A DNA stretch of 57,115 bases from a virus (IMGVR_UViG_3300048587_000396:1-57115); one strand, 5' to 3'; positions 2,238-45,929 are shown, counted from the stretch's first letter. Program-made: numbers and translations. Notes: generated by a model not told the origin, from the letters alone.

Positions 2238-2246
2238 AAACGGCGC

Positions 2247-2275
2247 TTGCGCCTGGGTTTGGGCCGTGCTAGGCT
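2247..2275 (+). promoter_or_regulatory. sigma70-type promoter for the head operon
   Basis: TTGCGC-N17-TAGGCT; the same consensus recurs genome-wide. Confidence 0.7.
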
Positions 2276-2313
2276 GGCACAACGCCCATGGGCAGCACGG
2301 AGATCTGTTCAAA

Positions 2314-4221
2314 ATGACAATGCCCGTCGTCATTCGGGGTCAGCAGTCCGCCGCGGACCCGTGGGAGTTCGTTGCCTCCAGCGAGGCGGTCGACCGATAC
2401 GGCGACGTGGTCATGGCCTCGGCCTGGGACCTTCGCAACTTCAAGAAGAACCCCATCGCGCTGTGGCTCCACTCCGGCGCCAATCCCATTGGCGTCTGGG
2501 AGAATGTCCGCGTCGAAGGCGGAAAGCTGCTCGCCCGGCTGGTCATGGCGAAGCCCGGCACCTCCAGCGTCATCGACATGCTCCGCGGTCTGATCGAGCA
2601 GCGCATTCTGCGCGCCGTCAGCGTGGGGTTCATGCCCAAGAAGTGGGAGGATCTCGACCCCGAAAATCCCAGGGCTGGCCGCCGATACACGAAGGCCGAG
2701 CTTCTGGAGATCTCGGTGGTCACCATCCCCGCGAACCCCGAGGCCCTGGCGGTCGCCAAGTCCCTCGGCATGACCGACGAACTTCAGTCGGCCCTGTTCC
2801 TGCCCAGCGAGTCCGCCGGGTCCGTCTCCAAGTCCTTCACCCGGCCGAACGCCGAACGCACCTCCACGAGGAACACTCCGATGAAGACCCTGGCTCAGCA
2901 GATCAAGGCGCTGGAGGAGGAACTCGTTCTCCACCGCGACAAGGTCACCGAACTCTCCGCCGTCGATCCGACCGAGGAGACCGACACCGAACTGGCCGAG
3001 GCCACCGCTCAGCTGAATGCCGTGACGGACCGCCTCGAGCGCCTCCAGGCGGCGCAGGCCGCGATCGCCCGGAAGGCCGTCGCCCCGCGTGTCGAGCCCG
3101 ATGCCGACCCGAATGCGCCGACGGCGCCGCGCGTCTTCGCCCGTGCCAAGCAGAAGGCGCCGCCCGCGGACATCCTGATGAAGGCGGGCTTCGCGACCTT
3201 CCGCTCCATCGTGACCCGCACGCCGATCGACACCGTGATCAAGGACCTCTACGGCAGCGAGGCCAAGGAGATCGACGTCATCGTGCGCGCCGCGACCGCG
3301 GCGGCGAGCACCACCGTCCCGGCCTGGGCGGGGGAGCTCATCGAGGAGCAGACCGCCGAGTTCGCCACGCTGCTCGTTCCCACGTCCGTGTTCGCGGCCT
3401 TCCCGGGCTTCGGCGTCTCGTTCGACACCACCGGCAAGATCCGCATTCCGGGCCGGAACTACGCGGTCGGCGTGTCCGGCGGCTTCGTGGGCGAGGGTGG
3501 CGCCATCCCGGTGAAGGCCGGTGCGCTCACGTCCATCCTGATGACGCCGCACAAGGTCGCGGTCATCATCGCGCTGACCCGTGAGCTGGCGCAGCGGAGC
3601 TCGCCCGCCGCCCTGCCGCTGTTCCGGCAGATGGTGCTCGAGGATACCAGCATCACGCTGGACACGCTGTTCCTCGACAACACGGCGGCGGTCGCCGGCA
3701 TCCGTCCCGCCGGCATGCAGACCTTCGCCACCGGCGACAACACCCGTGCCTCGTCCGGCTCCACGCTCCAGAACATCATCGCCGATGTGAAGGACATGGT
3801 CAGTCAGATGGGCACGAACCGCCTCGGCCGTCGGCCGGTGTGGATCATGAACGAGGCCAATCGTCTCGGTCTGTCCATGCTGACCAACGACCTCGGCCAG
3901 TTCATGTTCAAGGATGAGATCGGCCGGGGGACCTTCTTCGGCTATCCCATCATCTCGTCGCTGAACGTCCCGACGGGCATCGTGTTCCTCATCGATGCCA
4001 ACGAGATCGTGAAGGCGGCGGAGGGTGCGCCGAACTTCGACGTGTCCGAGAGCGCCACGCTCCACATGGACACCGTGCCGAATGCGGACATCGCGGTTCC
4101 CACCACCGGGATCGTCAGCCTGTGGCAGACGGACCAGATGGGCCTCCGGATGATCTGGGATCTCACGTGGGCCGCGCGTCAGGCGGGTGCCGTGCAGACC
4201 CTCACCGGCGTCGCCTGGTGA
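2314..4221 (+). CDS. HK97-type prohead protease fused to major capsid protein
   Basis: N-terminal protease motifs (VDRYGDVV, NPIALWLH, AVSVGF, LLEISVVTIPANPEA), coiled-coil scaffold, HK97 capsid motifs (FVGEGGAIP, WIMN, FFGYPII, SLWQTDQMGLR). Confidence 0.92.
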   Translation: MTMPVVIRGQQSAADPWEFVASSEAVDRYGDVVMASAWDLRNFKKNPIALWLHSGANPIGVWENVRVEGGKLLARLVMAKPGTSSVIDMLRGLIEQRILRAVSVGFMPKKWEDLDPENPRAGRRYTKAELLEISVVTIPANPEALAVAKSLGMTDELQSALFLPSESAGSVSKSFTRPNAERTSTRNTPMKTLAQQIKALEEELVLHRDKVTELSAVDPTEETDTELAEATAQLNAVTDRLERLQAAQAAIARKAVAPRVEPDADPNAPTAPRVFARAKQKAPPADILMKAGFATFRSIVTRTPIDTVIKDLYGSEAKEIDVIVRAATAAASTTVPAWAGELIEEQTAEFATLLVPTSVFAAFPGFGVSFDTTGKIRIPGRNYAVGVSGGFVGEGGAIPVKAGALTSILMTPHKVAVIIALTRELAQRSSPAALPLFRQMVLEDTSITLDTLFLDNTAAVAGIRPAGMQTFATGDNTRASSGSTLQNIIADVKDMVSQMGTNRLGRRPVWIMNEANRLGLSMLTNDLGQFMFKDEIGRGTFFGYPIISSLNVPTGIVFLIDANEIVKAAEGAPNFDVSESATLHMDTVPNADIAVPTTGIVSLWQTDQMGLRMIWDLTWAARQAGAVQTLTGVAW

Positions 4222-32619: not shown

Positions 32620-33048
32620 TCAGACTCCGGTGCTGCCGAATCCCCCTGCACCGCGCTCGGTGGGTGACAACTCCGGGACGTGGTTGAGGCTCGCCCGAAT
32701 GAACGGAGCAAGGACAGCCTGCGCGATGCGATCGCCGCGAGTGACCTCGTAATTCGCGTCGCCCAGGTTCATGAGCACGATGAACAGCTCCCCGCGATAG
32801 TCGTAGTCCAGAGTGCCGGGCGAGTTGAGCACGAAAATCTTGTGCTTCGCCGCGAGGCCCGATCGGCTGCGGATCTGCAACTCGTATCCGGGCGGCACCT
32901 CGAACATCAGGCCGGTGCGATAGATGCGGTGCATCCCGTAGTAGATCGTTCCCGTATCGGCGCTGGAGATGTCCATCCCTGCCGAGCCGTCGGTGGCATA
33001 CTCCGGGAGACGAACGTAGTGCTCCAGTGTCGCGATTTTGATTTCCAC
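32620..33048 (-). CDS. dut: dUTPase (trimeric)
   Basis: GSAGMDI, RSRSGLA, NSPGTLDYDYRGE, GDRIAQ, RGAGGFGSTG. Confidence 0.97.
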   Translation of the reverse strand: MEIKIATLEHYVRLPEYATDGSAGMDISSADTGTIYYGMHRIYRTGLMFEVPPGYELQIRSRSGLAAKHKIFVLNSPGTLDYDYRGELFIVLMNLGDANYEVTRGDRIAQAVLAPFIRASLNHVPELSPTERGAGGFGSTGV

Positions 33049-33070: not shown

Positions 33071-34963
33071 TCAATCAACTTCCACCGTCTTGCCCTGTCC
33101 CCAGGACGGGCCGACCTCCAGGTCACAGACGACCGGCACCAGAAGCTCGGCCGCGCTGTTCATGACCTTGGCGCATTCACGTGCCTCATCCTCCGATTCC
33201 ACCGCGAAGCCGAGCTCGTCGTGGACCGACACCAGCACGCGGAACCCCGCCTTGTCAGCTGCGATCATAGCCGCCTTGGTCATGTCGGCCGCCGAGCCCT
33301 GGATCAGCTTGTTGAACGCCTTGTGGAGATACCACCGTTCACCCGCGACCATCGGGAAGCGGCACTTCCGACCGAGCAGCGTCTTGATGTAGCCTCGGCG
33401 CCTCGCCGCCTTGCCGACCTCGTTGGACAATTCGCGCATGAACGGAACGAGCTCGTCGTATTTCTCCAGAAGCTCCTCCCCCTCAGGCCCTGGCCGCAGG
33501 ACCACCCGCTTCTTCGCCGCCCACCAATCCTCGGTGAACGGCAGGCCGAGCGCCGCGCACAGACTGCCGGCTCCCTGCCCATACATCTGCGCGAGGTTGA
33601 GGATCTTGGCCTTCTTGCGGGGGATCTCCATCAAGTCAGCCACGAGCTGGTGAAGGTCGAGGCGCGGGTTCTCGCGATACTTGGCCGCGAGCTCGAGCGC
33701 GCTCTCGATCTCGATGGCAGCGCCGAAATGCACGGCGAGTCGTGGCTCCTGCGAGGAGTAGTCGCACGCCGCCCAGAGCGGCTTGTCCTCGTCTCCGACG
33801 AACAGACCGCGGACAGCCCTCGCCGCTTCCTCGTCTCGCGCTGGAAGCTGCTGGAGGTTCGGATCGGAACACGAGAAGCGACCGGTGACGGTGCCTCCGT
33901 CTTCGCCACGCAGAGACGAGAAGCTGGCGTGGATGCGTCCGTTGTGATGGTGATCGAAGATGAGCCGCTCGACGAATGTCACCCGTTGTCGATCGACGCG
34001 CCGCAGACGCAGGATGGATTGAGCCACGTCGTTGTCCGTCAGCGATTCCAGCCATCCCGCCTTGAGCGACGGATCGCCCTTCACCTTGGTCAGGGGGAAT
34101 TCCTCGATGCCGCTCTTTCGCAGCGCAGCGATCTGGACCTCGGTGTCCCACGGGCTGATGGTCTCCCCCGTGATCTCCAGCAGATGCGCGCTGACCTCCT
34201 CCTGCTCGATGATCAGCTTCTCGTGCAGCTTCTTCGCCTTGCTGAGCGAGACTGCCACGCCGCGCCGCCGCATACGATAGAGCACCGCGAGGAGCTCCAT
34301 CTCCATGTCGTAGATCTCGCGCACCTCGTCGTTGTCCAGCATCGGCATGAAGTGCTGGTGAAGACGCCACGTGACTTCCACATCCTGCTCGGCGTAGGGA
34401 CCGATAATCGTGCTCGGCATCATGTGGATGTTCGCGCCTCGCTTGCTCTTCTTGATGCCGTAGGCTTTCGCCCAATCGTCCATCAGCGAGGTGTCCTTGC
34501 CGACACCGAGATAGTCCTTGCCGAGATTGTCCAGAGAATATGACCGGCGATATTCGTCGAGAAGCGGAGCCTGCACCTGGACATCGTGGATGGCGCCCGC
34601 GAACAAGACCCCCTCGTTCTCGAGCCAGCCGATATCGTAGTTCGCGTTGGCGAAACACCACGAAAGGTCCTTGCGCTTCGCCTGATACGCGAGCCAGCTG
34701 AAGAAGCTCAGCTCGGACTTGTGCCAGTTATTCCCGCCGCGGTGACGGAGCGGATAGTAGAGCGGTGGAGTGTTGTTGACTTTCAGCGCCACGCCCACGA
34801 TGTGTCCGTTGTCGAACGCCCATCCCGGTCCACGCTCGATGAGCTCAGGGTCCTTGGTCTCGGTATCGCAGGCGATCACCGATCCCTCGGGGATGTCGGG
34901 CAGCTCACGCGGGGGAACCCAGCTGACATCCACCTTGTAGTCTCCTCTGAGTTTGACTTTCAT
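33071..34963 (-). CDS. polA: DNA polymerase family A with 3'-5' exonuclease
   Basis: DTET exo I, NANYD exo II, YAEQD exo III, TVTGRFS...PNLQQ, DYSSQEPR motif A, KILNLAQMYG motif B, VHDE motif C. Confidence 0.96.
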   Translation of the reverse strand: MKVKLRGDYKVDVSWVPPRELPDIPEGSVIACDTETKDPELIERGPGWAFDNGHIVGVALKVNNTPPLYYPLRHRGGNNWHKSELSFFSWLAYQAKRKDLSWCFANANYDIGWLENEGVLFAGAIHDVQVQAPLLDEYRRSYSLDNLGKDYLGVGKDTSLMDDWAKAYGIKKSKRGANIHMMPSTIIGPYAEQDVEVTWRLHQHFMPMLDNDEVREIYDMEMELLAVLYRMRRRGVAVSLSKAKKLHEKLIIEQEEVSAHLLEITGETISPWDTEVQIAALRKSGIEEFPLTKVKGDPSLKAGWLESLTDNDVAQSILRLRRVDRQRVTFVERLIFDHHHNGRIHASFSSLRGEDGGTVTGRFSCSDPNLQQLPARDEEAARAVRGLFVGDEDKPLWAACDYSSQEPRLAVHFGAAIEIESALELAAKYRENPRLDLHQLVADLMEIPRKKAKILNLAQMYGQGAGSLCAALGLPFTEDWWAAKKRVVLRPGPEGEELLEKYDELVPFMRELSNEVGKAARRRGYIKTLLGRKCRFPMVAGERWYLHKAFNKLIQGSAADMTKAAMIAADKAGFRVLVSVHDELGFAVESEDEARECAKVMNSAAELLVPVVCDLEVGPSWGQGKTVEVD

Positions 34964-35082: not shown

Positions 35083-35859
35083 TCACGGAGCAGGCCAGAC
35101 GTATTCGAGGTCGGTGCCTTCGGTCCATCCGTTGAGGGAGTAGTAGAGGGCGTCTTTTCGGAGGAGGTTGGATCGGTGGGATGCATGGAAGTCTGGGTCT
35201 CCGAACCAGGGTGGAAGGACGTAGACTCGAGGTTTGAGGAGCAGCATCGTGTTGCGGAAACCTCGACGTCGCCACTCCTTGATGCAGACATCGGAATACT
35301 TGGCGAGCGCCGCCTCGTAGCCTCGCCACATGCGGGTCGCTGGATGATTACGCCAGCCTCGCGACACTCCCGTCAACGCATTGAGGATCTGGCGCGCTTC
35401 GAGTCGCTGTTTGCCAAGGCGCTTGTCGTCGAGCACGCGAGCAGATGCATGGAAGTCGGGGTATGGAAGAAATGTTTGGATTGGGTCTCTCCTTGCTTCT
35501 CTCCATTGACGCAGAGCAGCTTCTCGCAGTTTCTGTTTCGTCGCCTCTGACTTAGGACGACCCAACATGAACGCTCGAGCGGCTGCGGCAGTTCCCGGCT
35601 TCTTAAGACCGGCATGGTGATATCTGTGATGGCAGGTGACGCACATTAATTCGAGATTCGACAGGAAGTTATCTGCGGGGTTCCCATTAACGTGATGAAC
35701 GTGACCAGATCCACGAGTAGTCCCCAGCTGAGATATTTGAAGTCCGCACCTAGCGCACGACAGGGGGAGGTCGTTGAACAGTGTCCACAGGGATCTCGCT
35801 ATTGCAGCGGATCCACCAGCGTGCTCCCCGCTTCTGACTGAGTGTATCACCTTGACCAT
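35083..35859 (-). CDS. HNH/NUMOD3 endonuclease module in frame with pyrimidine-dimer DNA glycosylase (DenV/MSMEG_6728-like)
   Basis: CARC...HVHHVNGNPADN.LSNLELMCVTCH; KSEATKQKLREA; QTFLPYPDF...RLGKQRLEA..HPA..MW...LPPW.GD..FHASHRSNLLRKD. Confidence 0.85.
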   Translation of the reverse strand: MVKVIHSVRSGEHAGGSAAIARSLWTLFNDLPLSCARCGLQISQLGTTRGSGHVHHVNGNPADNFLSNLELMCVTCHHRYHHAGLKKPGTAAAARAFMLGRPKSEATKQKLREAALRQWREARRDPIQTFLPYPDFHASARVLDDKRLGKQRLEARQILNALTGVSRGWRNHPATRMWRGYEAALAKYSDVCIKEWRRRGFRNTMLLLKPRVYVLPPWFGDPDFHASHRSNLLRKDALYYSLNGWTEGTDLEYVWPAP

Positions 35860-37973: not shown

Positions 37974-38002
37974 AGCCTAGCCCGGCGGGCCTCCAGCCGC
38001 AA
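37974..38002 (-). promoter_or_regulatory. sigma70-type promoter
   Basis: TTGCGG-N17-TAGGCT. Confidence 0.65.
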
Positions 38003-38360
38003 GTAGCAGCCGCTCCAGAGACATCTTCGCGATGCTCAACAGCTCTGGGGAGCCGGTGTCATCGAACGTCGCGATGAGCGCGATGATCGCTTGCTCCTCC
38101 GCCCCCAGATCTCCGTTGGCGTCCAGATACTCCCCGATGGAGATGGGAGCGATGGGGTTCCTGCTCACGTCGATCAACTTGTCCAGGAAGTGCGCGGCCT
38201 TCTGCAGATCCTGGATGCCGTTCTTCTTGCGCCAGCGGGCGACATACTTGGTGATCTGCCCGCCGAGATAGGACATGTCTCGACTGGACACGAGATCCCA
38301 ATGCTGGATCGGCGACTGATAGTGATCGCCGCCGACTTGACGCTCGTTGGGGTCGCTCAT
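37977..38360 (-). CDS. DUF3310 (T7 gp1.7/SaV-like) protein
   Basis: QVGGDHY..IQHWD....KYVARWRKKNGIQDLQKAAHFLDKLI. Confidence 0.85.
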   Translation of the reverse strand: MSDPNERQVGGDHYQSPIQHWDLVSSRDMSYLGGQITKYVARWRKKNGIQDLQKAAHFLDKLIDVSRNPIAPISIGEYLDANGDLGAEEQAIIALIATFDDTGSPELLSIAKMSLERLLLAAGGPPG

Positions 38361-39202
38361 AGCAGTCCTGCCTCCTTCGCGTAATACCACAGCTCGCGGG
38401 GGATTTCCCGCTCGCTTCGTTGCAGATAGTCGGCGATGCGCAACGACACCGCGACGTAGTTCTGGTTGCCGAGCTTCATCTCTCGCAGAGTGTAGAGGCC
38501 CGCCTCGATGAGGTCCGCCCACTCCAGCCACGGACGGAGCTTCGGGGGAACGTCCCTCAGGCCCATCATCTTGGACATGACAATCTCGAGATTCTTGTGA
38601 TCGTCAGTTCGGCCGGGGCGCGGCATGTCGCCGATCTCCCCCTCGACCAGGTCATGGTCGAGCGCCGCCTCGACGAGCGTCAGCCTGTCCTTCGCGGAGC
38701 CTGGGAACAGCCGAGACAGCAGGAAGGCGACCGCCCACGAATGCTCGGCGATGGTCTGGCGATGCAGCGACTGCATCGTGTGCCAGCGCGTGACCGAGTG
38801 TCCGTAGTCGATCAGTGTAGAGATGTCGGCCGGGCCTCCTTCCTTGGAGGGCTGCTCCCTCGATGGCGCATGAGCAGGTCGGACAGTATCGTGTCCACCT
38901 CGGCCACCGTCGTCCCCGAGTGCAGGAGTTCCCAGAGCATCACCTCCACTCGGCGAAGGGTTATCTCCGAGGACTCCCCCGTCGGGAGCATCGGTGTCTT
39001 GTGATGCTCGTTCTGAATCCGCTGAAGCGATCGGCAATGTCGGCACGCGCAGCCTCCTACGTTGATCTTCGGGGACATTGTGATAGGCCCTCCATAGATG
39101 ATGGTCGCAATACGGACGGCCCTGAACAATTGGATCTCCGCACATTCTGTCGTCTTCGATCCATTGGCAAGTTCCGGGGGGCGAACTTATGTATCTAGGC
39201 AC
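38357..39202 (-). CDS. HD-domain 5'-deoxynucleotidase (YfbR-like), in frame with an N-terminal GcrA-like Cys/His domain
   Basis: VTRWH...QTIAEHSW...ALDHDLVE..IGDMP...WADLIEA; N-terminal CQWI...CG.P...PYCDHH..RAY. Confidence 0.8.
   Translation of the reverse strand: MPRYISSPPGTCQWIEDDRMCGDPIVQGRPYCDHHLWRAYHNVPEDQRRRLRVPTLPIASADSERASQDTDAPDGGVLGDNPSPSGGDALGTPALGDDGGRGGHDTVRPAHAPSREQPSKEGGPADISTLIDYGHSVTRWHTMQSLHRQTIAEHSWAVAFLLSRLFPGSAKDRLTLVEAALDHDLVEGEIGDMPRPGRTDDHKNLEIVMSKMMGLRDVPPKLRPWLEWADLIEAGLYTLREMKLGNQNYVAVSLRIADYLQRSEREIPRELWYYAKEAGLL
38812..39078 (-). CDS. Hypothetical protein nested in a different frame within 38357-39202
   Basis: GGAGG upstream of ATG; CACRHC motif and protein-like composition. 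Confidence 0.4.
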   Translation of the reverse strand: MSPKINVGGCACRHCRSLQRIQNEHHKTPMLPTGESSEITLRRVEVMLWELLHSGTTVAEVDTILSDLLMRHRGSSPPRKEARPTSLH

Positions 39203-40160
39203 GACGGTTGAGCCACCTCCTCGCTGCTACGATCCAGTCGTTGTTGGTCTCGGGCAGGATATCGACCGCCTGAGTGTCGCCCTTCTTGTGCTCGCGATGG
39301 GCGTGGACCATCGGAACGACCACCGACTGGAAGAAGTGAGACGTGAACTGGCTCGGATTGATGGGCGCTCGTGCGGTGAGCAGGCTCATCAGGACGTTGG
39401 CATCCTCGAGCGTGACCTCGGGGGAGAGGGTCGCCAGAGGAGTCGAGTAGACCTCGCCGGTATCATATTCCGTCGAGACCGCATCAGGTATCGATTGGAG
39501 ATTCTTGCCCGGCCCGAAGCCCGTGTAGATGTGCGCGTTCGTGCTGATCTGCGTCAGCGTGCCGACCCTGGTCTGGGTGGATGCCGACAGATACTCCAGC
39601 AGGAAGCTGAACTGCACGATGTTGGCGCCGAGCATTCCCCAGAACAGGTCGTTGCTCCGATTGAAGACGGTGAGGTGCATCGTGTCGTCGATGATGCGCG
39701 GGACCGCCATCAGGTTGCAGGGAATGTCGCGGCTGACAATGCCTAGATCTCGCTCCGCCTCCCAGATGCTCAGCACAGCTCGCCGGTTTCCTGGTTCCTG
39801 GTTGAGCATCATGACGACTTCCGAGAACTGCTCGTGGAGGCGCGCTCCGTAATGCCCCCGGAGGGTCTGGCCGTCGTCGCTGAACGTGTAGAACCGGTCG
39901 GCGATGTCTGCCAGGGGAATCACGGAGTCCACCTTGCTGAGGATCGACAGGCCGTCGACGAGGTGCAGGAACGGATTGATCTTGCGCCACGGGTTGAACA
40001 TCACCCGCTCGACGGGATTCAGCGTCTCGACAGCGAACGGTCCCGGATGGGAGATCACGTCGCCGTTGCGCGAGCCCTGCCGAACTCCGAAGTTCGACAG
40101 CCTCCGAGCCGCCTGGAACAGCAGATGGTCGCCGTTGCGACCGGTCAAGTGACTGAACAT
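39195..40160 (-). CDS. Thymidylate synthase family, probable dUMP hydroxymethylase
   Basis: NPFLHL.D, YGARL, RRAVLSIW, DIPCN, NRSNDLFWG.LGANIVQFS (Asn indicates dUMP specificity), NAHIY. Confidence 0.85.
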   Translation of the reverse strand: MFSHLTGRNGDHLLFQAARRLSNFGVRQGSRNGDVISHPGPFAVETLNPVERVMFNPWRKINPFLHLVDGLSILSKVDSVIPLADIADRFYTFSDDGQTLRGHYGARLHEQFSEVVMMLNQEPGNRRAVLSIWEAERDLGIVSRDIPCNLMAVPRIIDDTMHLTVFNRSNDLFWGMLGANIVQFSFLLEYLSASTQTRVGTLTQISTNAHIYTGFGPGKNLQSIPDAVSTEYDTGEVYSTPLATLSPEVTLEDANVLMSLLTARAPINPSQFTSHFFQSVVVPMVHAHREHKKGDTQAVDILPETNNDWIVAARRWLNRRA

Positions 40161-40184
40161 GATGGTCCCCTGTTGCGTGCGCCT

Positions 40185-40213
40185 AGCCTAGCGCGGCCTG
40201 CCGCCGCGCGCCA
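40185..40213 (-). promoter_or_regulatory. sigma70-type promoter
   Basis: TGGCGC-N17-TAGGCT. Confidence 0.65.
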
Positions 40214-40217
40214 GCCC

Positions 40218-41141
40218 CTACAACTCCTTGGCTACGAAGTCGGCCAGGATACGCGCGACAGTCGCTGGATCATGGTGGCTCCTCAGATAGTCGTAGGCGT
40301 CCACCGGCTTCCGAGAGCGGTCACGCATGAGATCGATGATGTCCTGCGCCGACGAGATCGGCACAACGTAGTCCTGCAGAGGGCTCGGCCACGCCTTCAG
40401 CCAATCCGCAGCGACTGCCGTGATGCAGCCCGCCTTCAGACCGTAGAGGGTCGCATATTCGCTACCTCCGCCATCGCCCTTCCACGGCTTCGTCAGATTG
40501 AACGCGATCTCCGTGCTCGCTGCCAGAGCGCCCGTCTCGTCAGGCTCGTAGGCCATCTGGTCGTCGGGAGCGAAGCCGGGCCAGGGCGGATTGCCGAAAT
40601 GCTTGCGGAGGTAGTGGAACGCGTAGAGGCGGCTGATCTCGCCACGGAACTGCACCGGCTCCTTCCTGAGCCAGATGTTCGCCTCCATGATGAGCTCGAT
40701 GTTCTTGCGCGAAGTGACGCGCGTGAACGACATCCCCCGGAACTTGCGGGCAGGGGGAATCGGCTTCGCCGAGATCGGATGCGGCACGAACTGGCAGCCG
40801 GGATAGCGGCTCGCATACGACTCGCGGATCACGAACGTCTTCTCGTTGGGATATTCGGAGAGGACCTTGCAGTGATCCTGCTCGGTGGAATTGTGCAGGA
40901 AGCGATAGAAGCCCGCGTCCAGCATCCGCCGCTGATCGTCCTCCGAATGTGACTGATAGTTCGTGTGGAGTAGGATCTTCGGGCCTCGCTCCGCCAGAAT
41001 GTCGGCGAGCGTCTCGTCGCGGCTCATGGTCCAGAAGCGATACGGGATCTTCGCGCGCTTGAACCCGAGCACCATGTATCGCATGAACGGGCCGATACCG
41101 TTGCGGCGATGTTTCATGCCCTGCGAAATGAGGTGGATCAC
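40218..41141 (-). CDS. GT-B-fold glycosyltransferase, putative
   Basis: SFTRVTSRKNIELIMEAN and DGGGSEYATLYGLKAGCITAV resemble GT-B nucleotide-sugar binding segments; HDP..VA C-terminus. Confidence 0.55.
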   Translation of the reverse strand: MIHLISQGMKHRRNGIGPFMRYMVLGFKRAKIPYRFWTMSRDETLADILAERGPKILLHTNYQSHSEDDQRRMLDAGFYRFLHNSTEQDHCKVLSEYPNEKTFVIRESYASRYPGCQFVPHPISAKPIPPARKFRGMSFTRVTSRKNIELIMEANIWLRKEPVQFRGEISRLYAFHYLRKHFGNPPWPGFAPDDQMAYEPDETGALAASTEIAFNLTKPWKGDGGGSEYATLYGLKAGCITAVAADWLKAWPSPLQDYVVPISSAQDIIDLMRDRSRKPVDAYDYLRSHHDPATVARILADFVAKEL

Positions 41142-41389
41142 GCCCGCCCCTCCAACACGTCATTGCCGAACTTCTCGAGCTCTTCGCTGAGGTTGTCCAG
41201 CAGGTTCAGGTCCTCATCGGTGATCTCGTCCGGATCTTCCGTCTCGGACAGGTGGCCCGTCATGATCCCGAGGAACGCCTGAGCTCCCGCATAGAAGGCT
41301 CGACGCATCTCCTGCCGCTGGATCGGCGGCGCCTCCTGCAACAGGGCGGCTTCGAAGGACTCCCATTGCTCCTTGATGGTCTTGCTCAT
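41138..41389 (-). CDS. Hypothetical protein
   Basis: QRQEMRRAFYAGA motif; AAGGAG RBS. Confidence 0.75.
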   Translation of the reverse strand: MSKTIKEQWESFEAALLQEAPPIQRQEMRRAFYAGAQAFLGIMTGHLSETEDPDEITDEDLNLLDNLSEELEKFGNDVLEGRA

Positions 41390-42381
41390 TCGTAGATCTC
41401 CTTCACTCGCGGTGTGAACGGGTCCCCCTCGATGGCGCGAGCGGCCACTCGGTAGGTCGCTTCGGTAGGAGCCAGCAGCTCCTCCTTGCCGAACTTGTCG
41501 GGCAGCAGACCGGGGCGGTTCACCGCCTCGTTGCATCCCAAGCACGGAATCATTGCGCGGCCATCGTGCATCAGGATGCGGCGCGCGGCCTGGAAATGCT
41601 TGTGATTCCACAGCTCGTCGAGCGGCATCTGTCCAACGTTCGCAATCTTGTAGTGTCCAGGCCAGTCCACGCAGCAGAGAGCGACATCGCCATTCCAGCG
41701 TATCGCCAGCTCTCGGAACGGCTTCGCGCACCGCTTCTTGGCATACGACTCGTCGGGAGGCCCGCTGTTCAGCGCGTGATTGCTGAGATGCGAGTGCGTT
41801 CCCTTGGTCGAGACGCTGATGTCCTTCACCCAGACCAGCTTCTTGCCGCGATGACGCTGATGCGGATTGCCTTCCGGGTTCTCGGGATACTCGATGAACT
41901 GGACCCCGTTCACACTCCCTGGGGGATATTTCTCGCGAAGCGCCGGAACGATGCGCGCGTGCCGATAATCGTCGAGCGCGAAGGTGTTCAGGCCAGCGTC
42001 GAAGAGCTCCTGGAGCATGTTCCCCTTGAGTAGTCCCCCGCCGTTCGAGGTCACCATGATGTAAGAACGAGGGAGGTAGTGGCGGAACTTCCAGACGATG
42101 GTCGGAAGATCCTTGTTGAGCGTGGGCTCGCCGTGCATGGCGAACTCCAGACGCGGGTTCCAGCTGAGCCGCTTGATCTCCTTGGCGATGTGGGTCGCCA
42201 GATCGATGTTCATATACTTGAACGGGCCGGAGTTCCTGCCGTGGTTCATGCCGACGGAATGCGCTCCGTTCGCACGAATCGATTGGATGCCGCAGAAAGC
42301 GCAGGCGAGATTGCATCCCTCGACCGGCTCCATCTGGATGGCGAACGGTGGTGTCTGTTCAACCACGGGAATTCCTTTCAC
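41386..42381 (-). CDS. Radical SAM protein with SPASM/twitch domain
   Basis: CNLACAFC, HGEPTL, VTSNG, CAKPF...GDVALCC.DW...CLGC. Confidence 0.92.
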   Translation of the reverse strand: MKGIPVVEQTPPFAIQMEPVEGCNLACAFCGIQSIRANGAHSVGMNHGRNSGPFKYMNIDLATHIAKEIKRLSWNPRLEFAMHGEPTLNKDLPTIVWKFRHYLPRSYIMVTSNGGGLLKGNMLQELFDAGLNTFALDDYRHARIVPALREKYPPGSVNGVQFIEYPENPEGNPHQRHRGKKLVWVKDISVSTKGTHSHLSNHALNSGPPDESYAKKRCAKPFRELAIRWNGDVALCCVDWPGHYKIANVGQMPLDELWNHKHFQAARRILMHDGRAMIPCLGCNEAVNRPGLLPDKFGKEELLAPTEATYRVAARAIEGDPFTPRVKEIYE

Positions 42382-42604
42382 GGAGGAGCGCGGCCAGTCG
42401 GCTGCGATGCTGAACGAGGGTCGAGGCGAAGCGGATGCAATGGCCGAGGTGGCTGTCGGTCATCTCGTGCATGTAGAAAATGACGTTGCGATCCTTGGTT
42501 CGCCATTGATCCTGGCCGCATCGCGGTTCGGTGGCCCGACGCTGAGCGTGCCAGTCTCGCTTGCCGACGCCAGAGACGCAATTCGCTTGTTTCTCGTCGA
42601 TCAT
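42359..42604 (-). CDS. Hypothetical protein
   Basis: WRTKD....EMTDSHL..CIR motif; ATGA coupling. Confidence 0.6.
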   Translation of the reverse strand: MIDEKQANCVSGVGKRDWHAQRRATEPRCGQDQWRTKDRNVIFYMHEMTDSHLGHCIRFASTLVQHRSRLAALLRERNSRG

Positions 42605-43395
42605 GTCTTGGCGCTCTTCAACGCTTGTTCCCACTTGATGCGAACGTCCTTGCGGTTACCGAACGCTCCCCCGGTGGAGTTCTGCTTCTGCACGATCTCG
42701 ACGAACGCCGGATGGAGACGCTTGAGCTCCTCCGCCGCCGCGCTCTGCTTCTCGTGGTCGCGGTAGTCGGAACACCCGCCGGGAAGCTGCGTCTGCTGCT
42801 GATCCTGCACCCAATTCGTCAAGATGAAGTTCGGGTAGCCGCGACGGAGCAATTGGAGGGTGACGTCGAAGTCCTCCATGACCGGCACTCGGCCGTGGAC
42901 GGAGGCCAGGAACGGGATCGTCTGGTATCCCAGGACGCGCAGCATTCGGCCCACGATCTTGACGGGATATTTCTTGTCGTTGTTGCGAGCGTTGTTCCCC
43001 TGGCGGATGTCCACGCTCCCGTGAGCATACTTGTTGAGGTATGCCGCCACGAGCTCGATCATCTCGACGGTCTGCTCGGGGGAGTTCCGGTGCAGATGCC
43101 AGTCTTCCAGCGACAGCCGATGGTAGAAGCGGAGGTCGTCGTCCATCATGATGAACCTGTCGCGGTCCAGCTGACGAGAGTGCTTTCCGCACCACCAGCG
43201 CGTCTTGGCGATGCCGTCCAACGGACACGACAGCAGGCTCGCACGGTGACGCTCGGCCATCTTGGCATAGCGATCTCGTTGCTCCTTGGGCACCACGAGA
43301 TAGACCGTGAAATCGCGCTTGGCGCCGTCCAGAGCCTCCAGCGTCAGGGATCGATCGAACCGAGACCGGCTCGGCACATAGACTGCGAAACTCAC
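42601..43395 (-). CDS. GT-A-fold glycosyltransferase (TAGT/GREB1-like)
   Basis: VYVPSRSR, GIAKTR, FIMMDDDL (DxD), MEDFDVTLQLLRRGY.N, GGCSDYR. Confidence 0.8.
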   Translation of the reverse strand: MSFAVYVPSRSRFDRSLTLEALDGAKRDFTVYLVVPKEQRDRYAKMAERHRASLLSCPLDGIAKTRWWCGKHSRQLDRDRFIMMDDDLRFYHRLSLEDWHLHRNSPEQTVEMIELVAAYLNKYAHGSVDIRQGNNARNNDKKYPVKIVGRMLRVLGYQTIPFLASVHGRVPVMEDFDVTLQLLRRGYPNFILTNWVQDQQQTQLPGGCSDYRDHEKQSAAAEELKRLHPAFVEIVQKQNSTGGAFGNRKDVRIKWEQALKSAKT

Positions 43396-43601
43396 TGCAC
43401 TCCCCTCCGCTTCTGCGATGCTGCGACCTTCTCTCGATGCCTCGCCGCCTCGTCGAGGTCGGTCAGGACTTCGGGATCATACGGGTTCCGCATGGACTGC
43501 GGCAGGGGGAGTCCGTAGAACCTCCCTTCCGGCATCTGAATGTGCCGATGTTCCTTATAGGCGCCCTTCGCGATGAGGGTCCCCCGGAACCGCTTCGCCA
43601 T
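43392..43601 (-). CDS. Hypothetical protein
   Basis: Translational coupling on both sides. Confidence 0.55.
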   Translation of the reverse strand: MAKRFRGTLIAKGAYKEHRHIQMPEGRFYGLPLPQSMRNPYDPEVLTDLDEAARHREKVAASQKRRGVQ

Positions 43602-43807
43602 CAGAACGACTCCCTCTCTGCCGCCTCGCTGAGCAGCCGACCAGCTTCGGCGGTGTTGCGATCATAGGCTTTCTGATCGCCGCGCTCCAAATCCTGCGCT
43701 GCGATCCACACGCGAACTGTCGCCCGAGCCCTCAAGGCTGCGGGACTGGTGAGGATGGACTGCGTGGGTTCGGGCACCGCCCTCCCGCGAGTGTCGAGGA
43801 GCGTCAT
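43601..43807 (-). CDS. Hypothetical protein
   Basis: ATGA and TGATG coupling. Confidence 0.55.
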   Translation of the reverse strand: MTLLDTRGRAVPEPTQSILTSPAALRARATVRVWIAAQDLERGDQKAYDRNTAEAGRLLSEAAERESF

Positions 43808-43995
43808 CCGAAGGTGGCCTTCCAGTCTTCGGCGGTCATGCCGCTCATGAGGAACTCGCGCTGGTCGGCCGTGAGGCCGGGCATGGCCTTCTGAATGAGC
43901 TCACCGGACTGCCACCGCAGAAGCTGCTCCGGAGTGACGGGGATTTCGAGAGTATTCTCGCGCTGCGTGACGGGGCTTTTTCTGGTGACGAGCAT
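43804..43995 (-). CDS. Small phage protein
   Basis: GELIQ.AMPGLTADQREFLMSG.T.EDW motif; CAGGAGG RBS. Confidence 0.75.
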   Translation of the reverse strand: MLVTRKSPVTQRENTLEIPVTPEQLLRWQSGELIQKAMPGLTADQREFLMSGMTAEDWKATFG

Positions 43996-44023
43996 GCGAA
44001 CCTCCTGAACGTGCCGCACCGCA

Positions 44024-44052
44024 AGCATAGCGCGCCCGCGCCTCTAGGGCAA
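44024..44052 (-). promoter_or_regulatory. sigma70-type promoter for GT/rSAM operon
   Basis: TTGCCC-N17-TATGCT. Confidence 0.7.
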
Positions 44053-44901
44053 GTGCGGCCTGTAAACGGAACGCACGGATCCCTGGCTCAGCTGAAGTCG
44101 ACGATACTTGTCGAACTCGCAACAGCAGTTCTGCACATCGTGGAGCTCCATGCGCTCAGCGATGCGGGGGAGTTCGCGTCTTACGATCTTGAGGAGATTG
44201 ACCATCATTGGGACTGCCTCGTGCTGGAAGACCCGCTTCACGCGGAAGGTCCCCCGCAATCGTGCCAGCCCGCGAGTCGAGCCTGGTCCAAGGGGAGCCC
44301 ACTCGTAGCGGTCCTCCCATTCGCCGGGATAGACGTGGCGCAGATCGGCGACAATCTGGCCCGCCATAAAGCTGCCAAGCCCCGGCCTGCCGCGCAAGGC
44401 GCTCCACGTGGCCTCCATACTTGAGGTGTCGATCTCGGGAGGGTCATTCCACAACGGAGTCAGGATGCGCTCCACGATCTGCAGATACTTCGGGCCTCCG
44501 TAGGCTCCGTTGATGATGTAGGCTCCCGTGAATATCTTCTCGCCCTTCAACGCTCGCTTGCTCAGCGCGCGGATGTATGCGGTCGGATCGAACGGGATTG
44601 GCGGAGGGAGAGCGGCGAGGGTGTCGGGCCAGTTGATCAAGCGACCAACGGCGCACGCGAGCACGGCCTCACTCGGCGAGGAATAGATATAGCTGCGATG
44701 CCAATTGAGGAGCCAGCGGCTCACTCGATCGTCCATGCGAACGACATTGCACCAGCGAAATCTGTCGAGGAAGGGGTCGGTGGACCAGGGACGCGGGAGT
44801 CCTTGCTCTTTGCGGAGACGAACGGCCTCCCGCTCCTGTATCCAATAGAGGAACTTGTCGACTTCAGCCGGGACGAAGGCCTCGGGGGAGAGCACCTTCA
44901 T
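44044..44901 (-). CDS. aGPT-Pplase1 / 5hmdU-DNA-kinase-type helical protein (thymidine hypermodification)
   Basis: WIQERE....KE.G.P.PWS.DP....RWCNV.R.DDRVS, RLINWP.TL, FTGAYII, G.GSFMAGQIVADL, GPGSTRGL, DVQNCCCEFDKY. Confidence 0.85.
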   Translation of the reverse strand: MKVLSPEAFVPAEVDKFLYWIQEREAVRLRKEQGLPRPWSTDPFLDRFRWCNVVRMDDRVSRWLLNWHRSYIYSSPSEAVLACAVGRLINWPDTLAALPPPIPFDPTAYIRALSKRALKGEKIFTGAYIINGAYGGPKYLQIVERILTPLWNDPPEIDTSSMEATWSALRGRPGLGSFMAGQIVADLRHVYPGEWEDRYEWAPLGPGSTRGLARLRGTFRVKRVFQHEAVPMMVNLLKIVRRELPRIAERMELHDVQNCCCEFDKYRRLQLSQGSVRSVYRPHLP

Positions 44902-44942: not shown

Positions 44943-45929
44943 TCACTCGGCGACCTTGACGCAACCGCGGCGAACGAGGTTCGAGATGATGCCGCCCGCG
45001 TTCGGCTTCTTCTCGGCGCCCTTGAAGGTCGTGTTGATGGCCTCCAGCGCGTCGCCGTAGGTCATGCCGTCCTCGAGCGCGGAGTAGGCGTCGCCCAGGA
45101 TGGAACCCTCGCGCGGCTTGCTCTCGGCGTCGTCGAGCAGCTCCAGCGTCGCATCCTTCTTGATGCGCGGCGTGAAGTCGGGCTTCTCGCCCTTCTTCGG
45201 AGCGCCCTTCTTGGGCTCCTTCGCGGCCTTCTCCACCTTCGCCGGCGCCTTGGCCGACTTCTTGGCGGGCTTGGTCTCCTCCTCCTCGATTTCCTCCTCG
45301 TTCTCCTCCGGCTCGGGCTCCTTCGTCTTGGCCTTCGCCTTGGCCTTCGGCGCGGGCTTCTCCTCCTCGATCTCCTCCTCGGTCTCCTCCTCCGGCTCGG
45401 GCTCCTTCGTCTTGGCCTTCTTGACAGGCTTCAGCGGCTCGATGGCGAGGTCGCCGTCGTCGTCGAAGAAGAGGCCCATGTTCTTCTCGGCCAGTGCCTC
45501 GGTCAGCGCCTCGCGGGCCTCGTCGTCATCCTTCGTCTTGAGGATGTTGCCGGTGACCTGCTTGAAGGCCGACTTCAGAACCGGAAGCTCCAGTTCGCTG
45601 ATATCCACGGTCTGCACGTTGGGGAATCCCTTGATGCGTGAGCCGGTCGCCAGTCGACTCAGGTTCTTCGGGGAACGGATGGCCTGGCGAATGGCCTCCG
45701 GTAGGTCAGTCCACCCCGTCTTGGGACGAGGACCGGGGGAGTAGGTGCGTCCTCGGGGGAGTGTCCGTCGGACGAGGTGGACCGCTTCGCCGTCCGCTGT
45801 CATGGTGAAGCCGGACCAGTCCGGGCCTGCCGCCTGAGCAAAGATCTCAGTGGCGACGGGTGACGGCGTCTTGAGGACGGCGACTCCCCAGCCCATTCTA
45901 TCGCGGTATCGGAACATGACAGCGAACAT
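44943..45929 (-). CDS. Lys/Glu-rich protein with C-terminal putative DNA-binding domain
   Basis: KAKTKEPEPEE repeats; C-terminal EDGMTYGD...LVRRGCVKV. Confidence 0.75.
   Translation of the reverse strand: MFAVMFRYRDRMGWGVAVLKTPSPVATEIFAQAAGPDWSGFTMTADGEAVHLVRRTLPRGRTYSPGPRPKTGWTDLPEAIRQAIRSPKNLSRLATGSRIKGFPNVQTVDISELELPVLKSAFKQVTGNILKTKDDDEAREALTEALAEKNMGLFFDDDGDLAIEPLKPVKKAKTKEPEPEEETEEEIEEEKPAPKAKAKAKTKEPEPEENEEEIEEEETKPAKKSAKAPAKVEKAAKEPKKGAPKKGEKPDFTPRIKKDATLELLDDAESKPREGSILGDAYSALEDGMTYGDALEAINTTFKGAEKKPNAGGIISNLVRRGCVKVAE

Follow-up and report, generated by a model that had tools for sequence, protein, structure and literature searches.

Which base do the phage genes between positions 38357 and 44901 of the viral record IMGVR_UViG_3300048587_000396 put into DNA? 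We analyzed the whole record of 57,115 bp (hereafter the window), which comes from an uncultivated tailed phage and is approximately 93% complete according to CheckV. An earlier reading of this DNA, made from the sequence alone (the sequence-only reading), had proposed a new thymidine-hypermodification pathway in this block, based on 5-hydroxymethyl-2'-deoxyuridine (5hmdU) and comprising a dUMP hydroxymethylase, an HD nucleotidase, two glycosyltransferases (GTs), a radical S-adenosylmethionine enzyme (rSAM) and a protein of the aGPT-Pplase1/5hmdU-DNA-kinase type. Our results favor a kinase-independent cassette in which 5hmdU would be placed into DNA and glycosylated, the sugar would be tailored by the rSAM, and a second GT of the GT-B fold would add sugar; judging from gene content and related loci, we consider this reading fairly probable.

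The six genes lie on the minus strand in the same orientation, tightly packed and with several overlapping stop and start codons, as positioned by a listing of open reading frames (ORFs) and by gene calls based on the G+C content of third codon positions (GC3). From upstream to downstream, they encode the HMUDK_hel protein, a clade-1 aGPT-Pplase of 285 amino acids (44044-44901; PF18723, E = 2.8e-39, 135.6 bits), a TAGT-family GT of the GT-A type (42601-43395; 264 amino acids), the rSAM (41386-42381; 331 amino acids), a GT4-like protein with a predicted GT-B fold (40218-41141; 307 amino acids), a thymidylate synthase (TS) homologue (39195-40160; 321 amino acids) and an HD/YfbR-like protein (38357-39202). 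All the genes named by the sequence-only reading were present, in one co-oriented block as it had described.

The chemistry of the first step can be predicted from the TS homologue (PF00303, E = 6.9e-13; PHROG 5131, E = 6.4e-71), which carries the motif 'FNRSNDLFWGMLGAN'. We aligned it using MAFFT with Escherichia coli ThyA and with the homologues of PhiJL001, Pam3, RHph_TM26, an M6-like phage, an SPO1-like phage and CBA120. C146, R166, S167, D169, G173 and N177 (E. coli numbering) were invariant in the eight sequences, including the Asn from which specificity for dUMP had been read earlier. At position 177, Asn goes with dUMP and Asp with dCMP, and D169N marks the 5-hydroxy-dCMP synthases of the RB69 gp48 type (PMC13326640, Lee et al. 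2026). The latter mark was absent from the alignment, Asp being invariant at position 169. Since C146, D169 and N177 are kept, the substrate is expected to be dUMP and the enzyme not a D169N-type 5-hydroxylase. The same study associates a hydrophobic L143 with methyl products and an acidic residue at this position with hydroxymethyl products (PMC13326640). The homologue of the window has an Asp three residues before the catalytic Cys, at the L143 position ('DIPC' versus 'LAPC' in E. coli), and this Asp is common to the window, SPO1-like, M6-like and CBA120 homologues. The closest TS homologues came from M6/PaMx11-like, Bordetella, phiRSL1, SPO1-like and ViI/CBA120-like phages, with 35-38% identity to those of the M6/ViI-type hypermodification phages; in the phage groups of the nearest ones, 5hmdU synthesis is established. 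The best relative in the PDB was MilA, a CMP hydroxymethylase, which has an Asp at the place aligned with N177. We predict that the TS homologue is a dUMP hydroxymethylase.

In the described systems, the kinase is a P-loop protein and the clade-1 aGPT-Pplase is a separate protein resembling glycosylases of the helix-hairpin-helix (HhH) type (PMC5889632, PMC8989533; Lee 2018, 2021). Both are fused in SP10 (Lee 2018, Lee 2021), and the in vitro reconstitution did not require the clade-1 protein M6 gp55 (PMC8989533). Pam3, RHph_TM26 and the M6-like phage have a P-loop gene directly upstream of the clade-1 gene, and the window has none at this place. Searches of the window by tblastn with the proteins of Pam3 and RHph_TM26 found no kinase, clade-2 transferase, pyridoxal phosphate (PLP) enzyme, Nmad5 or M6-type rSAM. 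Likewise, hidden Markov models (HMMs) for the P-loop 5hmdU DNA kinase (5-HMUDK, built from three phage kinases) and for clade-2 aGPT-Pplases (built from six proteins) matched nothing in the window, in the PhiJL001 locus or in the 160 related loci collected in the surveys below, and recovered three of three controls at E < 1e-85. The only trace of AAA_33 in the window was a 12.8-bit match inside the helicase. No PALP enzyme, DegT aminotransferase or NAD-epimerase was found in the record, and the controls matched in 14 of 14 genomes; the lack of NDP-sugar (nucleoside diphosphate-sugar), PLP and aminotransferase genes implies that sugar donors come from the host.

The HMUDK_hel protein does not fill this gap. 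Residues R24, R55, D58, R87, K138, D186, D197, GPG205-207, C261, E262 and K265 are invariant in its family. Its AlphaFold2 (AF2) model was of high quality (pLDDT 92), and Foldseek found nothing significant for it in the PDB, the best matches being MutY, an archaeal 8-oxoguanine glycosylase and endonuclease III (E = 0.3-0.8); a profile search of the PDB found nothing meaningful. The protein is helical and distantly HhH-glycosylase-like, and is not a kinase. Hence, of the aGPT-Pplase1/5hmdU-DNA-kinase-type assignment in the sequence-only reading, the HMUDK_hel domain stands and the kinase part does not, and its suggestion that the sugar might also be phosphorylated is unsupported, the P-loop kinase missing from the window and from all 160 related loci. 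The absences that it had listed for the clade-2 transferase and for a PLP decarboxylase were borne out.

Instead of kinase and transferase genes, the window contains glycosyltransferases. The TAGT protein matched PF20691 over profile positions 1-205 of 205 (E = 1.2e-18; 68.3 bits, gathering cut-off 27.5) and PHROG 842 (E = 7.3e-49), which is annotated as DNA glucosyltransferase. Its D85-D86-D87, a DxD-type motif for metal and NDP-sugar, was invariant in alignments of 22 and 30 sequences. It is 35% identical to PhiJL001 gp22 and distantly related to the beta-glucosyl-HMC-alpha-glucosyltransferases of T-even phages. A search of the PDB with the TAGT profile found nothing meaningful. A scan of viral contigs with the single sequence retrieved no relatives, but a narrower TAGT alignment used as query did. 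We predict that this protein is a DNA 5-hydroxymethyluracil (5hmU) glycosyltransferase. A predicted complex of TAGT with HMUDK_hel had a score of 0.00 (mark 0.32), to which we give no weight either way. Of note, two cultured phages are candidates for glycosylated 5hmU: phiRSL1 (AB366653, 163155-170762), in which about 6 kb separate a TAGT homologue from a TS homologue annotated as deoxyuridylate hydroxymethyltransferase, and Brevibacterium phage LuckyBarnes, which has a TAGT homologue.

The 307-amino-acid protein at 40218-41141, listed previously as a putative GT-B enzyme, had no match in Pfam, PHROG, NCBIfam or PDB sequences, and a single-sequence scan of viral contigs found no relatives. Using 15 homologues gathered from rSAM loci, we obtained an AF2 model (pLDDT 86, pTM 0.84) with two Rossmann-like domains, as in the GT-B fold. 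At E <= 0.001, Foldseek returned 56 matches in the PDB; the ones listed were glycosyltransferases, led by a UDP-glucose:tetrahydrobiopterin glucosyltransferase (E = 3e-8), SenB and tll1591. Structures of T4 AGT (1y6f/1xv5/1y6g), including a complex with DNA containing hydroxymethyluracil (HMU), had a TMq of 0.65-0.67 to the model. Similar viral models in BFVD were phage GTs; they included two SP-15 GTs and entries under the name 'DNA alpha-GT'. A conserved 'DGGG(T/S)QY..EA.DAG' segment of the family resembles, by eye, the E-x7-E region of GT4 enzymes. On the strength of the model, the protein is a GT-B glycosyltransferase and an accessory second GT, in agreement with the earlier assignment.

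The remaining enzyme of the block is the rSAM (Radical_SAM, E = 1e-8; SPASM, E = 3.5e-12). Across 36 family members, C23, C27 and C30 of the CX3CX2C motif were invariant, as were five C-terminal Cys (C218, C236, C237, C280 and C283). A full SPASM domain, with two auxiliary clusters, has a seven-Cys motif, which these 36 sequences lack; with five C-terminal Cys instead of seven, the enzyme appears to be of the twitch type with a single auxiliary cluster. The family profile matched BtrN in the PDB over the core and auxiliary-cluster domains (E = 4.2e-23), followed by anSME (E = 6e-6), and in the HMM alignment the four auxiliary-cluster Cys of BtrN align with C218, C236 or C237, C280 and C283. 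These results support the twitch-type, BtrN-like enzyme that had been suspected. BtrN acts on a free small molecule and converts C-OH to C=O. The family is large: of 2594 candidates, at least 1456 sequence clusters passed E <= 1e-10, mostly under generic names and in a few cases under 'uncultured Caudovirales'; the clusters in the ESM Atlas were 97-100% viral and designated only as generic viral rSAM. In a collection of 50,697 phage records, the only matches were six from Campylobacter phages at 24% identity, and no cultured phage of this collection had a close relative.

To which other genes is the rSAM tied? We surveyed IMG/VR using the rSAM as seed (123 confirmed relatives from 129 matched stretches, 80 loci kept, 45 of them with full flanks of about 8 kb on either side) and using TAGT as seed (393 relatives from 536 stretches, best 80 loci kept), and scored presence by HMM at E <= 1e-5. 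In the 80 rSAM-seeded loci, TS was found in 73, HMUDK_hel in 68, TAGT in 70, GT-B in 18 and any GT in 75; among the 45 full-flank loci, the corresponding numbers were 43, 41, 40, 13 and 44. TS, HMUDK_hel and a GT occurred together in 66/80 loci (40/45 with full flanks) and both GT types in 13/80 (9/45). The P-loop kinase and the clade-2 transferase were found in none of them (0/80 and 0/45 for each). Counts obtained by tblastn in the rSAM-seeded loci were similar. The best 80 TAGT-seeded loci contained TS in 76, HMUDK_hel in 71, rSAM in 13 and GT-B in 3, with no kinase or clade-2 transferase, so that a GT was present without the rSAM in 67 of them. TS, HMUDK_hel and TAGT form a widespread core. 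The rSAM supplements it and is hardly ever seen where no GT is present. This dependence of the rSAM on the GT runs one way only, in keeping with a step that follows glycosylation or is coupled to it. GT-B supplements the core less often, and is more frequent in loci with the rSAM (16/91 rSAM-positive versus 1/69 rSAM-negative loci). The window represents the fullest version of the cassette, and one related locus (L057) shares its gene order.

Seven longer rSAM relatives were also recovered. Five are fusions, comprising two TAGT-rSAM-SPASM proteins (P0124, P0126), two rSAM-SPASM-TAGT proteins (P0129, P0130) and one protein with GT-B (E = 4e-96) followed by rSAM (E = 5e-141; P0125). These three architectures are the strongest evidence that the substrate of the rSAM would be a sugar or a sugar donor and not the base alone. 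In the other two (P0127, P0128), the rSAM is split by intein-type domains (PF14890 Intein_splicing, PF07591 PT-HINT) and the rSAM HMM matches two pieces. Several related loci have duplicated genes, namely two rSAM and two TAGT genes (L082:7998-10710), two adjacent GT-B genes (L065:5960-7989) or two TAGT paralogues (L053, L058, L081), which suggests further glycan diversification. A cytidylyltransferase-like gene (PF01467, e.g., L119:11234-11662) was found in 20/69 rSAM-negative and 0/91 rSAM-positive loci and could mark a phage lineage or represent an alternative donor-activating enzyme. Other genes that co-varied with the rSAM (a PD-(D/E)XK nuclease, a Mor-like protein and a Pam3 gp33-like protein) look like lineage backbone, and we assign them no role in the pathway.

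From the family signatures, the following order of events can be drawn. The dUTPase would supply dUMP, which the TS homologue would convert to 5-hydroxymethyl-dUMP; the DUF3310 protein and host kinases would bring this to the triphosphate, the HD nucleotidase would deplete competing dTMP or other deoxynucleoside monophosphates, and the phage PolA would insert 5hmdU in place of T. The later steps are suggested by gene context. TAGT would move a host NDP-sugar to the 5-hydroxymethyl oxygen, giving an O-glycoside similar to base J. The rSAM would take a hydrogen from a sugar carbon and tailor the sugar, most likely from C-OH to keto, with epimerization, dehydration or decarboxylation as alternatives. 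The GT-B enzyme may add a second sugar or glycosylate a different subset of sites. HMUDK_hel is probably a protein for the recognition or base flipping of 5hmU in DNA, or a Cys-dependent enzyme, common to all 5hmdU pathways. The end product would be a glycosylated and radically tailored 5hmdU that shields DNA from host nucleases. Three elements of the sequence-only reading find contextual support here: modification based on 5hmdU (from the TS signature, the relatives in 5hmdU phages and the vicinity of PolA), glycosylation in place of amino acid transfer (from the GTs present and the missing clade-2 transferase), and a link between rSAM and sugar (from the GT in 44/45 full-flank rSAM loci and the fusions to TAGT and GT-B). 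The linkage of TAGT to TS and HMUDK_hel in the gene neighborhoods strengthens the same picture. A bolder version can be advanced tentatively, in which the GT and rSAM build a new tailored sugar directly on 5hmU in double-stranded DNA, HMUDK_hel is an autonomous Cys enzyme or base flipper, and the cassette represents a third, kinase-independent route, widespread among environmental phages.

Several observations weigh against the tailored-glycoside reading. All of the chemistry is predicted, from the substrate on which each enzyme would work (DNA, or a free nucleotide or sugar) to the sugar and the end product. The equivalence of the TS Asp to L143 is positional only, MAFFT having placed a gap in that column, and the best structural matches of the GT-B protein are small-molecule glucosyltransferases rather than DNA enzymes. 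The invariant Cys-Glu pair of HMUDK_hel suggests a catalysis of which the pathway makes no use. As the record is incomplete, an absent gene might lie outside it; no match to Tet_JBP was found in the window, in line with the sequence-only reading, but that search had no positive control. The HMMs used for co-occurrence derive from the rSAM-seeded loci themselves, at least nine contigs are common to both seeded sets, and, because many loci come from related phages, the counts are inflated and do not represent independent events.

The fusions leave room for another order of events, namely that the rSAM converts a host NDP-sugar to an unusual donor (keto-, deoxy- or epimerized), from which TAGT and GT-B afterwards glycosylate 5hmdU. 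The resulting base would still be a novel glycoside, made without radical chemistry on DNA. The substrate of BtrN, the nearest relative of known structure, is a free small molecule, the GT-rSAM fusions fit the channeling of a donor as well as they fit consecutive steps on DNA, and the record has no other sugar-nucleotide enzymes. As the domains are fused in either order and the partner GT can be of either fold, the fusions give no directional hint, and the present data do not separate tailoring of the donor from tailoring on DNA. We consider donor tailoring unlikely, though worth keeping in view.

The dependence of the rSAM on a GT bears on the proposal that the enzyme acts on the base itself, either oxidizing 5hmU to 5-formyluracil or forming a C-C bond at the 5-methylene, so that a carbon-linked chain, like that of the dihydroxypentyluracil of the SP-15 type, is then glycosylated. 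In its favor, the second-best PDB relative of the rSAM, anSME (E = 6e-6), oxidizes the CH2OH of serine, SP-15, YerA41 and Carin-5 have glycosylated carbon-linked T derivatives (PMC12686479), and GTs of SP-15 are among the structural matches of the GT-B protein. However, 5-formyluracil offers no hydroxyl to a GT, and a GT was found in 44/45 rSAM loci, yet without the rSAM in 67/80 TAGT-seeded loci. The rSAM needs the GT and the GT does not need the rSAM, which makes the rSAM an add-on to glycosylation and not a prerequisite for it. Furthermore, no relative of the rSAM was found in SP-15-like phages, the phage collection giving only the six Campylobacter phage matches. A base-acting rSAM thus appears improbable.

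The invariant Cys of HMUDK_hel raises a different possibility, to which we give a similarly small chance: a Cys-dependent transferase, similar to those of clade 2, that attacks C6 of 5hmU or of its glycosylated form, expels the 5-substituent and installs another nucleophile, so that the final base is no O-glycoside. The family has an invariant Cys261-Glu262 pair in 'LCEFDK' together with invariant Asp and Lys residues, and C261 was placed opposite the invariant clade-2 Cys ('ETxLCKWK'), which is, as mapped by motif, probably the catalytic Cys247 of PaMx11 gp46 (PMC11472151). In one related locus (L051), the clade-2 HMM gives a weak match where the clade-1 protein lies. Nevertheless, this hhalign alignment was weak (E = 0.01, 4% probability), M6 gp55 was dispensable in vitro (PMC8989533), and no kinase that would form the leaving group is present. 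Foldseek with the HMUDK_hel model did not recover the PaMx11 gp46 structures, and we dropped the idea that a catalytic site shared by HMUDK_hel and clade 2 is structurally demonstrated. Finally, it is very improbable that this is an ordinary block in which the TS makes dTMP and the GTs and rSAM have virion proteins or host surface glycans, not DNA, as their targets. The DNA substrate is a prediction, and the top fold matches of GT-B are not DNA enzymes; against such a block, however, the TS has a hydroxymethylase signature and 5hmdU-phage relatives, the genes lie in the replication/nucleotide module beside PolA and not in the structural module, TAGT is linked to TS (76/80) and HMUDK_hel (71/80), and PHROG 842 is annotated as DNA glucosyltransferase.

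The DUF3310, dUTPase and PolA genes that the sequence-only reading had placed nearby were confirmed by Pfam, PHROG and tblastn, all three downstream on the minus strand. The DUF3310 protein (37977-38531; PF11753, E = 4.5e-7; PHROGs 5839, 236 and others) belongs to a family labelled 'nucleotide kinase' in PHROGs and is a candidate 5hmdUMP kinase; as listed, its ORF overlaps the HD ORF, and its true start is thus probably near 38360. The dUTPase (32620-33048; PF00692, E = 1e-25) would supply dUMP and exclude dUTP. The HD protein (PF12917 over amino acids 136-196, E = 6.5e-11; PHROG 6047, E = 1.5e-20) reached 29 bits against the NCBIfam 5'-deoxynucleotidase profile, below the cut-off of 122 bits. 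It has an unexplained N-terminal extension of 135 amino acids (38798-39202) with a Cys-rich segment and sub-threshold matches only (GcrA C-terminus, E = 0.066; WRC, E = 0.026). The GC3 of this ORF (0.684) is the lowest in the block, and the extension may be a separate or mis-started gene.

Within the block, three small ORFs (43392-44028, minus strand; 69, 68 and 74 amino acids) had no Pfam match at or above threshold and no homologue by tblastn in the 80 rSAM loci. An 87-amino-acid ORF (41138-41401, minus strand), which overlaps the rSAM stop and the GT-B start, matched no family and was not conserved in related loci by tblastn. The 219 bp between TAGT and rSAM (42382-42600) are the only sizeable gap and contain no convincing ORF. 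Promoter- and terminator-like sites in the block were not above chance, with no terminator-like site on the minus strand and neither kind in the gap. Directly upstream of HMUDK_hel, a 328-amino-acid protein (44943-45929, minus strand) with a long low-complexity center rich in Lys, Glu, Pro and Ala had no family match in Pfam or PHROG; its C-terminus resembles, by eye, the approximately 205-amino-acid proteins of one survey cluster (cluster 14) found at the same position in about 20 related loci. We considered the latter as a possible kinase and rejected it, as they have no Pfam match and no Walker A motif.

In the rest of the record, the G+C content is about 59-67% in 2-kb windows. The plus strand carries the structural genes, including those for a portal and a tail tube protein, and a single 739-amino-acid ORF (2002-4221) combines a prohead protease (Peptidase_S78) and a major capsid (Phage_capsid) domain. 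The minus strand holds a long replication/nucleotide module from approximately 23.5 to 53 kb. PolA, a family A DNA polymerase (33071-34963, minus strand), was 34-36% identical by tblastn to PolA of PhiJL001, Pam3 and RHph_TM26. Because of this identity and of proteins similar to Pam3 gp33 and gp34, we place the phage in a broad M6/PhiJL001/Pam3-like group. At the DNA level, no close relative was found among the 50,697 phage records, with only three short matches. One further ORF (35083-35859, minus strand) joins an HNH-like segment (PHROG 7545, E = 3.7e-10; the Pfam HNH_3 match was below cut-off) to a Pyr_excise domain (E = 5e-23), the pyrimidine-dimer glycosylase of the T4 endonuclease V type; a Pyr_excise gene (cluster 10) stood near the cassette in 30/80 rSAM-seeded loci.

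How does the cassette compare with described systems? In the route of M6, ViI, PhiW-14, SP10 and PaMx11, 5hmdU is phosphorylated by the P-loop 5-HMUDK to the 5-phosphomethyl form (5-PmdU), which receives an amino acid or amine from a clade-2 aGPT-Pplase (amino acid:DNA transferase, AADT) and is then tailored by PLP, rSAM or FAD enzymes. The window shares with M6-type phages the TS clade, the clade-1 aGPT-Pplase, the position of the block next to PolA and a related backbone, but has GTs in place of the P-loop kinase, clade-2 transferase, PLP enzyme and Nmad5. Unlike the enzyme of the M6 gp53 type, its rSAM is BtrN-like and had no tblastn match to the Pam3 rSAM. The cultured phage PhiJL001 has the same core genes in the same order (gp19, gp22, gp24, gp25, gp26 and gp28), and this locus lacks the rSAM and GT-B. 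As in the T-even phages with glucosylated 5-hydroxymethylcytosine (5hmC), a TS-family hydroxymethylase would place a hydroxymethylpyrimidine in DNA for later glycosylation; the TAGT falls in PHROG 842 with the beta-glucosyl-HMC-alpha-glucosyltransferase of T2/T6, and GT-B resembles T4 AGT structurally. The base differs, being uracil (Asn177) rather than cytosine, and the rSAM and HMUDK_hel are present; we know of no T-even phage that uses either. Base J of kinetoplastids (beta-D-glucosyl-5hmU, made by JBP1/2 and JGT) resembles the predicted first product, an O-glycosylated 5hmU, and Iyer and colleagues are said to have placed JGT among the relatives of the TAGT family in 2013. In contrast to base J, the 5hmU of the window would arise before replication through the TS homologue and not through a dioxygenase on DNA, and there are further tailoring genes.

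The same GT families modify DNA in the phage TET/5mYOX pathways (Burke 2021; Pyle 2023/2024), although those characterized start from the oxidation of 5-methylcytosine and act on 5hmC. BtrN itself, the 2-deoxy-scyllo-inosamine dehydrogenase of butirosin synthesis, shares with the rSAM the CX3CX2C cluster and a C-terminal auxiliary cluster with four aligned Cys, but the enzyme of the window is viral, is adjacent to DNA-type GTs or, in its family, fused to them, and has one more invariant Cys (the C236/C237 pair). Glycosylated thymidine derivatives, as predicted for the window, also occur in SP-15, YerA41 and Carin-5, in which no relative of the rSAM was found. These are large myoviruses with a carbon-linked (di)hydroxypentyl linker plus phosphate, a UDG-fused PolA and their own sugar-nucleotide genes (PMC12686479).

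Parts of this gene set are already in print. The co-location of the core genes near PolA was noted in pelagiphages (PMC9599517), where the core is uncharacterized and 'radical SAM' does not appear in the main text. In metaviromes, ThyS often has GT-A and GT-B genes as neighbors (Pyle et al., 10.1101/2023.12.21.572611), in a text without occurrences of 'radical SAM' or 'kinase'. The metavirome survey of Lee 2021 was, according to its accessible text, seeded with P-loop kinases and would not have retrieved kinase-less clusters. Our literature search, which covered texts other than supplementary figures, found no paper on a phage cassette with SPASM/radical SAM, TS and GT, and, judging by titles and the first lines of abstracts, no report of a phage with glycosylated 5hmU, the hits being mostly on kinetoplastid base J, methods and chemistry. 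Hence, the newness proposed by the sequence-only reading has to be qualified for the core, which occurs in PhiJL001 and in earlier publications, whereas no printed mention of the rSAM link was found; Iyer et al. (2013) or supplements may depict such clusters.

To our knowledge, all known 5hmdU-based routes to hypermodified thymidine proceed by P-loop kinase phosphorylation followed by amino acid or amine transfer. A cassette that lacks both and has GTs with an rSAM instead suggests a family of DNA bases not yet described and a new enzyme activity. It is widespread, considering the at least 1456 rSAM sequence clusters, the 393 TAGT relatives in IMG/VR and the presence of the core in PhiJL001 and pelagiphage relatives. 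Its modular series, from TS with HMUDK_hel and TAGT to the addition of the rSAM and then of GT-B, provides an experimental ladder. If the rSAM were shown to work on the DNA-bound sugar, this would be the first case of a radical SAM enzyme with a DNA-linked glycan as substrate, and the tailored sugar could be keto, deoxy, epimerized or cross-linked. Such bases bear on the evasion of restriction and CRISPR by phages, on sequencing bias in viromes and on enzymatic tools for DNA labelling.

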